64,000 nucleotides of DNA from assembly GCF_000143415.4 (NCBI RefSeq), contig NW_003314355.1, positions 639,410 to 703,409 on the forward strand, in the 5' to 3' direction. This stretch comes from Selaginella moellendorffii (lineage: Eukaryota; Plantae; Lycopodiophyta). Each line of letters opens with the position of its first letter. The first letter of the stretch is position 1. The notes beneath the pieces are model-generated. The model made no database searches. It was not told the origin of the DNA and worked only from the letters and a program-made list of their open reading frames with translations. Below are positions 44,901 through 46,752 of this stretch, piece by piece. A program made the translations under genes and the position numbers.

Positions 44901-46752
44901 GTTTGCGGTGGTCAAGGCGCTCAAGGAGTGGCGACACTACCTTGGGAGACACTTCAAGGTTTACACGGACAATGTGGCAACGAAACACTTCTTGTCACAA
45001 CCCGACCTGAGAGGGAAACAAGGTCGGTGGGCCAATGCCTTGGCCGAGTTTGATTGCGAGATTCTGTACAAGCCTGGGAAGAGCAACATCGTGGCAGATG
45101 CGCTAAGTCGAAAAGCGAGCTTGAGGTTGGCGATCTCCAGCGCAACAGCAACCTTCTGGGACGATGTGCGGACAGCATATGAGAACGATGGTCTAGCACA
45201 AGAAGTGTTGTTGAGGAATCTAGAGGCACGGGAAGCTCACCAGAGAGGTGAGCCGCCAACGGAAGAGAAAACGGGCTATGCGGAACGCAATGGACTCATT
45301 TATTACAAGCAAACGAGGGTGTATGTTCCAGAAGGTGGACTAAGGAAGGTAGCCTTAGAAGAGTGTCATGACGGACCTCTTGCGGGACACGGCGGAGTGC
45401 CCAGGACGATGGGCTTACTCAAGAGGAAGTACCATTGGCCAGATATGGCTAAGGACGTCCAAGACTATGTAAAGACATGTCCAACATGTCAGCAGGTCAA
45501 AGCCGTGACTAAGGCTAGTGGGGGCTTGTTGCAAAGCATCCCCATTCCAGATCGTCCGTGGAAATGTCTCACGATGGACTTCATCACGGGACTACCCCCA
45601 AGCGAGGGGTTCGATGCGATATTCGTGGTGGTGGACCGATTTTCGAAGATGGCACATTTCATACCCACCACAACGGAGGTGGATGCGGAAGGTGTGGCGA
45701 AACTGTTCTTCGAACAAGTGGTTCGAGTGCGGGGAAGGCCAGAGGAGATTATCTCAGACCGAGATAAGATCTTCACTAGTAGGTTCTGGAGGACCCTCCT
45801 GGAACAGTATCGCACCAAGTTGAAATTCAGCACAGCCTATCACCCACAGACAGGTATGGGGTATTAAGTCAAGTTTGGTGGTCCTAACACTTCTTGACAG
45901 ACGGACAAACGGAAAGGGTGAATAGGCAGCTGGAGGATTATTTGCGATGCTATGTCTCGGGAGACCAGACCGATTGGGTAAGTCATTTGGGACTTGCGGA
46001 AATGTGTTATAACAACTCACCACATTCGAGTATCGGGGTGAGTCCATGGGAAGTCATCAATGGGCGAGCTATTGAAGGTCCTGTGGAACTCGGCGTGGCC
46101 GAGTATCATGGAGAGTTACCCGCAGTGGAGGCATTCACGGCGGAAAGACTCAACATTTGGAATCTAGTGAGGGATTCCTTGGAACGGGCTCAACAAAGGC
46201 AAACCAAGTACGCGAACCTAAAGCGCCGGGACGTAGAGTTCCAAGCTGGGGAGAAGGTGTGGCTGAACACCAAGAACCTTAGGCTACCAAGTGGGATCAG
46301 CCGAAAGTTGACCCAAAGGTAAAAATGCATGTATTCCTGTAAATGAATTGATCTTGAGTTCTTTAAGCAGGTTCGCGGGGCCTTACGAGATTGAGGCACG
46401 AATCGGTAAAGTGGCTTACCGACTCCGACTTCCTCGAGAGATGGGGAAGATGCACCCAGTGTTCCATGTGAACTTACTCAAGCCGTACTTTGAGGATCCG
46501 CTTCGCAAAGACCAAGTAAGACCTTTACCTGAGGTTATCCAAGGGGAAGAGGAATACGAAGTCGAGGCCATCCTCAATGCGCGCAAGAGCAAGCGACAAG
46601 GACGCGAGGTGAGAGAGTTCCATGTGAAGTGGAAAGGATTTCCACACTGCGAAGCAACATGGGAACCGGAGGAGAACCTAGCGAACGCGCGAGATCTAGT
46701 GGAGGAATTTCTGCAAGGCAGAACTCTATGTACTTATGCAAAGTTCAATTAA
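41980..46752 (+). CDS. Gag-Pol polyprotein (Gag, CCHC knuckle, protease, RT, RNase H, integrase, chromodomain); exons 41980-45853, 45901-46318, 46371-46752 give 1557 aa
   Basis: [42 protein letters not shown] zinc finger; TMDF..ISDRD..GQTER (DDE); [15 protein letters not shown]...VKWKGF...ATWEPEENL. One continuous frame only if two GT-AG introns are removed. Confidence 0.9.

Follow-up and report, generated by a model that had tools for sequence, protein, structure and literature searches.

Segments behaving as spliceosomal introns interrupt the integrase of a Ty3/gypsy chromovirus in Selaginella moellendorffii

LTR retrotransposons copy themselves through RNA, and the loss of introns during this cycle is its classic proof. 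Exceptions have been described in plants. In Ogre elements (Ty3/gypsy, Tat lineage), a non-coding intron lies within the polyprotein region; some of the transcripts lose it by splicing, which allows full translation (PMC6317226, PMC12786077, PMC3735527). EVD/COPIA93 and other Arabidopsis Ty1/copia elements contain an optional coding intron whose removal deletes the protease and brings a stop directly after Gag, and the EVD Gag RNA terminates early; such a conserved splice was not seen in Arabidopsis Ty3/gypsy elements in that study (PMC5580714). Barley BARE1 also has a protease-removing Gag splice, along with a distinct pool of unspliced, uncapped RNA for packaging (PMC3735527). Sunflower copia elements yield spliced short Gag forms (PMC7730604), and transcripts of rice CRR, a CRM-clade chromovirus, are alternatively spliced within pol with removal of RT sequence (PMC3735527). 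Penelope-like elements retain introns, mostly in the 5′ UTR, through retrotransposition (bioRxiv 10.1101/2021.04.23.441226); they belong to a non-LTR class, and their mechanism differs from that of the element described here. A 2025 review lists Ogre and EVD alone as notable exceptions among plants (PMC12786077). The initial annotation of our locus had called intron-bearing LTR families exceptional; with Ogre, BARE1, EVD and CRR on record, they are so to a lesser degree than it implied.

The closest described family is SM1-Galahad of S. moellendorffii (Novikov et al. 2012, PMC3350952). It is approximately 7.5 kb long, with LTRs of 1076/1146 bp that include poly-G, a 13-bp Met primer-binding site and one 3885-bp ORF encoding 1295 aa without a chromodomain. 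Two further ORFs of 316 and 309 bp trail behind, the second of them coding for a group I chromodomain, an arrangement for which the paper offers no explanation. As its authors found no intact copy, the consensus was built from several of hundreds of copies. In the sister family SM2-Galahad, a single ORF of 1577 aa runs without a break. The strings "intron" and "splic" have 0 occurrences in the main text of that paper and none in the one supplement searched. SM-Tcn1, a different Selaginella element, is described without introns (PMC2864245).

A chromovirus copy and its family

The window, a 64,000-nt stretch of S. moellendorffii DNA, contains a complete LTR element of 7,534 nt at 40773–48306 (Table 1). 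Its TG...CA LTRs, target-site duplication, primer-binding site, polypurine tract, Gag-PR-RT-RH-IN order and C-terminal chromodomain identify it as a Ty3/gypsy chromovirus. The primer-binding site is presumably that for initiator-Met tRNA. Compared by description, the element agrees with SM1-Galahad in overall length, LTR length, G run and ORF lengths (3885, 318 and 309 bp) and is most likely a copy of that family. What is seen here beyond the published description is that the breaks between ORFs are spliced introns, that the LTRs of the copy are nearly identical and a target-site duplication flanks it, and that there is a third splice.

Table 1. Features of the element, in window coordinates.
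Feature	Coordinates	Strand	Basis
Target-site duplication, left copy, ATCCG	40768..40772	+	sequence
5′ LTR, 1148 nt, TG...CA, 11-G run	40773..41920	+	sequence
Primer-binding site, Met type	41924..41936	+	sequence
Gag-Pol ORF of unspliced RNA, 1295 aa, 3885 bp	41980..45867	+	translation, Pfam
Intron 0, 157 nt, GT..AG, residues 401–453 including protease DTG motif	43180..43336	+	X2 and X4 contigs
TAG ending the predicted Gag-only protein	43340..43342	+	predicted
Intron 1, 47 nt, phase 1, in Asp codon of HPQT-D-GQTER	45854..45900	+
Exon B: catalytic Glu (45912–45914), remaining integrase core and linker	45901..46318	+
Intron 2, 52 nt, phase 2, in Arg codon of KLTQ-R-FAGPY	46319..46370	+
Exon C: Tf2-1-like SH3 domain and chromodomain, to final stop	46371..46752	+	Pfam
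Purine-rich tract upstream of 3′ LTR, limits approximate	47145..47157	+
3′ LTR, 1148 nt, one mismatch to 5′ LTR	47159..48306	+
Target-site duplication, right copy, ATCCG	48307..48311	+

The copy appears to have inserted very recently. Its LTRs differ at a single position in 1,148 (G at 40974, A at 47360), which amounts to approximately 30,000 years at 1.3e-8, a rate for grass LTRs that is uncalibrated for Selaginella. The initial annotation had noted the lone mismatch and the intact duplication, and had read them as a young copy made from an RNA that still held its introns; LTR identity and the matching ATCCG on both sides bear out the observation and favor this reading. Each LTR also includes a degenerate 12-nt unit repeated about 22 times (40867–41121 and 47253–47507), an array that is open in several frames and produces low-complexity ORFs of approximately 100 aa.

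Within the 1295-aa ORF, Pfam recognizes Gag, CCHC, protease, RT, RNase H, the integrase zinc finger and the integrase core up to its second Asp. The two blocks downstream of this ORF sit in other frames, and the chromodomain (PF00385, E 1.4e-16) in exon C becomes fused to integrase only once the RNA is spliced. The stops that end the ORFs of the multi-copy SM1-Galahad consensus lie within introns 1 and 2, which makes both introns probable traits of the family. They would also be dispensable for an element of this kind, because the SM2-Galahad ORF is uninterrupted.

Introns 1 and 2 in the integrase

The initial annotation had placed both segments, and the end of the 1295-codon ORF inside integrase, correctly. 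Intron 1 (G/GTATGG...CTAAC...TTGACAG/, slashes marking the boundaries) contains the in-frame stop of that ORF and a branch-site-like CTAAC word, and intron 2 (AG/GTAAAA...TAAGCAG/) contains an in-frame TAA at 46320–46322. Neither length is a multiple of 3. Among the shift-equivalent cuts of each segment, only one placement has GT..AG ends, a combination found at 33 of 9,447 stretches of 47 or 52 nt in the coding part. T content is 34% in intron 1 and 37% in intron 2, compared with approximately 20% in the coding blocks, ranking in the top 3% and 1%, respectively, of equal-sized windows from the coding part. Both segments had been described as AT-richer than their flanks; this applies well to intron 2 (GC 0.31) and only mildly to intron 1 (GC 0.43). 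For a host comparison, we placed six introns by eye in a neighboring S3Ae ribosomal-protein gene, whose removal leaves 263 codons without a stop. These introns are 49–66 nt long, and the donor and acceptor contexts of introns 1 and 2 resemble theirs, so that the segments are frame-breaking and similar in size to host introns, as had been claimed.

Several further properties of the two segments were recorded. Their lengths sum to 99 nt, so that exon C lies in the frame of the main ORF if both are retained, with stops between. Short direct repeats flank them, GACAG (5 nt) around intron 1 and AGGT around intron 2. A search of the window for a source of either intron found longest shared words of 11–12 nt, and RNA folding of introns 1 and 2 was no better than that of shuffles (z −0.8 and +0.5).

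We then asked where homologous proteins place the two joints, keeping coding blocks A, B and C separate in an alignment with 120 homologues. At junction 1, exactly one residue, corresponding to the split Asp codon, separates blocks A and B in all 116 homologues that align to both. At junction 2, the spacing is exactly one residue in 27 of 36, and ranges from −3 to +10 in the other nine. The KL..GP[FY] motif is 10 residues long in 185 of 185 matches from 275 proteins, as is the restored KLTQRFAGPY, and HPxxx directly precedes GQTE in 115 of 150 representative proteins (27 lack the motif and eight differ). Removal of the segments restores the integrase motifs, as the initial annotation had proposed. 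Without intron 1, 35 residues separate the second Asp (1260) from the Glu (1296), which is the D(35)E arrangement of retroviral-type integrases. Because this Glu lies beyond intron 1, the unspliced ORF lacks the third catalytic residue. Yeast Ty3 Gag-Pol (PDB 7Q5B) aligns with block A to residue 1267 and with block B from residue 1269, and together with the D(35)E spacing this agrees with the earlier placement of intron 1 just ahead of the catalytic Glu, between this residue and both Asp residues. Frameshifting or read-through past the breaks was considered and rejected, as each break contains 47 or 52 extra bases that are absent from homologues.

The best identities to exon B in protein searches are approximately 50%, the best RT identity among the proteins compared is 71% (to a Camellia element), no close relatives were found in the protein or contig collections, and the three ORF products are absent from the protein collection. 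A metagenome scan recovered 34 loci of one distant, decayed family (29–56% identity); none has an intron at junction 1, the motif being uninterrupted in 20 and unreadable in the others. Two protein records, P0258 and P0268, start at junction 1; each is a single record, and we do not take them as evidence of a shared intron. In the literature searched, where only two papers use the Galahad names, introns are mentioned neither for SM1-Galahad nor within the integrase of any LTR element. The check proposed in the initial annotation, for the same intron positions in related chromoviruses and in publications, thus yielded none among the proteins, the 34 loci or the literature searched.

Eight sequencing runs were examined, over 45300–47200 in X1, X17, X18 and X19 and over 41930–47150 in X2, X4, X10 and X11. 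X17 is RNA-seq; X1, X2 and X4 are presumed to be of RNA type, and the kind of X11 is unrecorded. Joint 1 (45848^45896, skipping 47 nt, GT..AG at +5) occurs in three of the eight runs, from three studies, as one raw X17 read and in contigs of X1 and X2. Joint 2 (46316^46369, skipping 52 nt, GT..AG at +2) occurs in contigs of X1 and X2, and one 2,500-nt X2 contig skips introns 1 and 2 together. Both junctions that the initial annotation had proposed as a check, 45853^45901 and 46318^46371, were found in RNA-type runs. These results support the conclusion that 45854–45900 and 46319–46370 behave as spliceosomal (U2-type) introns. Splicing states vary among the runs. Every form assembled in X2 is spliced, at each of the three sites, and the same holds for X1 at introns 1 and 2; X4 is mixed, with intron 0 skipped but intron 1 kept in a 614-nt contig. 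Raw reads on 45300–47200 number eight in X17 (one across the junction), two partial reads in X18 and zero in X19, and reads of both X17 and X18 extend into intron 2. Run X10, labeled as another organism, does not reach the intron sites but contains five contigs 95–99% alike to the element, a likeness that mislabeling, a close relative or contamination would all fit.

It is extremely improbable that the segments are private insertions that killed this one copy, or assembly errors. We found nothing in support of such a reading: the published consensus has matching ORF lengths, exact GT..AG skips recur in several runs, and a gap-free, DNA-like X11 contig of 952 nt (depth 23.4) spans both introns. 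The segments are therefore not specific to this copy, a point on which the initial annotation had staked its claim. X11 contributes 274 contigs to this region from an assembly of 1.3 million letters only, as expected of low-depth DNA in which repeats alone assemble. At least three of the eight differences in the X11 contig fall within the 47 nt of intron 1, sparing GT, CTAAC and AG (binomial p 0.006).

One diverged, defective copy accounts for much of the RNA evidence. The X1 and X2 contigs are 3–4% from the window copy and both have 14 differences over exon B; the X1 copy has two nonsense changes there (46065 and 46218–46220), the first of which recurs in one X17 read. Such uniformity suggests one expressed locus and invites the explanation that joined forms are transcripts of intronless genomic copies, with current splicing rare or absent. 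None of joints 0, 1 and 2 occurs in X11, which counts against intronless copies, although that run is too shallow to show a single-copy intronless locus. Run X4, with intron 0 removed and intron 1 kept, also speaks against the explanation, as does the X17 read pair at junction 1 (pairing inferred from depth bins). This pair has the window letters at 45959 and 46218–46220, two places at which the X1 copy reads otherwise; junction 1 therefore arises from more than one copy. Intronless copies would, moreover, still require past splicing at the same three GT..AG sites, and we consider this explanation distinctly unlikely.

Intron 0 and the proposed RNA pools

The third splice removes coding sequence. 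Intron 0 (AG/GTATGT...GGCTGCAG/) is skipped at 43177^43335 (157 nt, GT..AG at +2) in two of the four runs examined there, X2 and X4. Its removal shifts the frame and brings up TAG one codon later, so that the predicted product is a 401-aa Gag retaining the capsid and CCHC domains. The Gag-only splice of EVD and BARE1 works in the same way: the protease is removed and Gag is stopped right after the junction. The element is not a member of that class, having the Ty3/gypsy rather than the Ty1/copia domain order, and integrase is made without splicing in EVD and BARE1, unlike here. Whereas the EVD Gag RNA terminates early, the contig spliced at intron 0 continues for at least 765 nt into pol, RNA ends not being readable from contigs. 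A Gag-only protease splice is thereby extended from Ty1/copia to Ty3/gypsy, with RNA-type support.

The folding z of the intron 0 region is −4.0, yet values of −3 or below occur in 16 of 46 windows along the element. We rejected a special RNA structure at intron 0 because such a value is not unusual within the element. Nearly everywhere in the internal region (41930–47158), folding is better than that of dinucleotide shuffles (mean z −2.3), with peaks near the gag start, at the Gag/protease border, at the integrase zinc finger and in the 3′ UTR.

Introns 1 and 2 resemble the Ogre intron in that splicing of non-coding sequence is needed for full Pol and genomic copies retain the intron. They differ from an Ogre-type pol intron in their position inside integrase, with PR-RT-RH continuous. 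CRR is likewise a plant chromovirus, but it does not excise non-coding introns to build an enzyme. Splicing-dependent Pol is already known from Ogre; what is new here, judged against the literature searched, is the location of introns inside the integrase catalytic core.

Taken together, the data make it likely that the family runs separate RNA pools by means of its three introns. An unspliced RNA, keeping all three segments, would encode at most Gag-PR-RT-RH and an integrase without its catalytic Glu; we infer that this is the RNA that is packaged and reverse-transcribed, so that new copies retain the introns. Removal of intron 0 would leave a second pool encoding the 401-aa Gag only, a plausible source of Gag excess. 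A third pool, keeping intron 0 and lacking introns 1 and 2, would encode a 1557-aa Gag-Pol with a D(35)E integrase and a chromodomain. Only this third RNA could give working integrase. The initial annotation had envisaged two RNAs, unspliced and spliced; splicing is real, but the third splice had been missed and at least three RNA classes have to be considered. A stronger form of the scheme is a three-intron splice code in which no splice would mark the packaged genome, one splice would give Gag and the other pair would complete the DDE site and add the chromodomain, the host spliceosome gating integrase and spliced RNAs being actively excluded from replication. We put this stronger form forward tentatively.

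Among the runs examined, no contig or read has intron 0 present together with introns 1 and 2 removed. The doubly spliced X2 contig may itself come from a Gag-only RNA, because X2 shows intron 0 only in spliced form. That integrase-competent RNA is unseen, and that exon B of the X1 copy is broken by nonsense changes, would suit an element whose introns are real but whose integrase is supplied by an intronless relative, for example SM2-Galahad, published as an intact sister family; its own spliced RNAs would be Gag-only or dead-end. We regard this as unlikely, since exons B and C are open and keep the catalytic Glu, the SH3 domain and the chromodomain, and excision of both introns gives the exact spacing of homologues. 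Among the listed between-copy differences in exons B and C, moreover, eight of 11 single-base changes are synonymous, compared with 34% expected for transitions (p 0.01), a bias that points to selection on the spliced product. The figure is eight of 12 (p 0.02) when a triple change is included, and the main ORF is similar, with 33 of 44 listed differences synonymous.

The separate-pool scheme also has to account for the persistence of the introns. A copy without introns 1 and 2 would be autonomous in the ordinary way, so their persistence needs either the exclusion of spliced RNA from replication, as BARE1 achieves with its uncapped pool, or some advantage of the introns, which might limit the dose of integrase or aid expression. 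A simpler possibility dispenses with dedicated sorting: splicing would be inefficient, the introns tolerated passengers, and intronless copies yet to take over. Intron-holding sequences of RNA type do exist (intron 1 in X4, reads into intron 2 in X17 and X18), and the flanking GACAG and AGGT repeats fit chance insertion at proto-splice sites. On the other hand, X2 and X1 assembled spliced forms only, which indicates that splicing can be efficient; a family numbering hundreds of copies has held on to two independent introns, even though a copy lacking them would be autonomous; and intron 0 shows the precise Gag-stop design of EVD and BARE1. Tolerated passengers are on this evidence improbable, and separate RNA pools remain our preferred reading.

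In this high-copy, recently mobile family, the introns serve as built-in markers that tell genome RNA from messenger RNA, each insertion recording which RNA was copied, and the choice of packaged RNA by plant retrotransposons becomes testable by sequencing alone. With the continuous ORF of SM2-Galahad for comparison, the gain of the introns can be dated. Families of this kind will be taken for broken ones by annotation pipelines; the describing paper found "no intact copy."

The surroundings of the element include other repeats and genes. A decayed Ty3/gypsy pol on the minus strand (35569–38079), with pieces of RT, RNase H and integrase, lies approximately 2.7 kb upstream. Two near-identical S3Ae ribosomal-protein-like genes are found downstream, at 55040–56170 and approximately 60391–61121, the second of which appears rearranged or partial. 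A 245-aa open frame at 50085–50822, which matches the BED zinc finger weakly (E 0.0014, below cut-off), is perhaps a hAT-like remnant.
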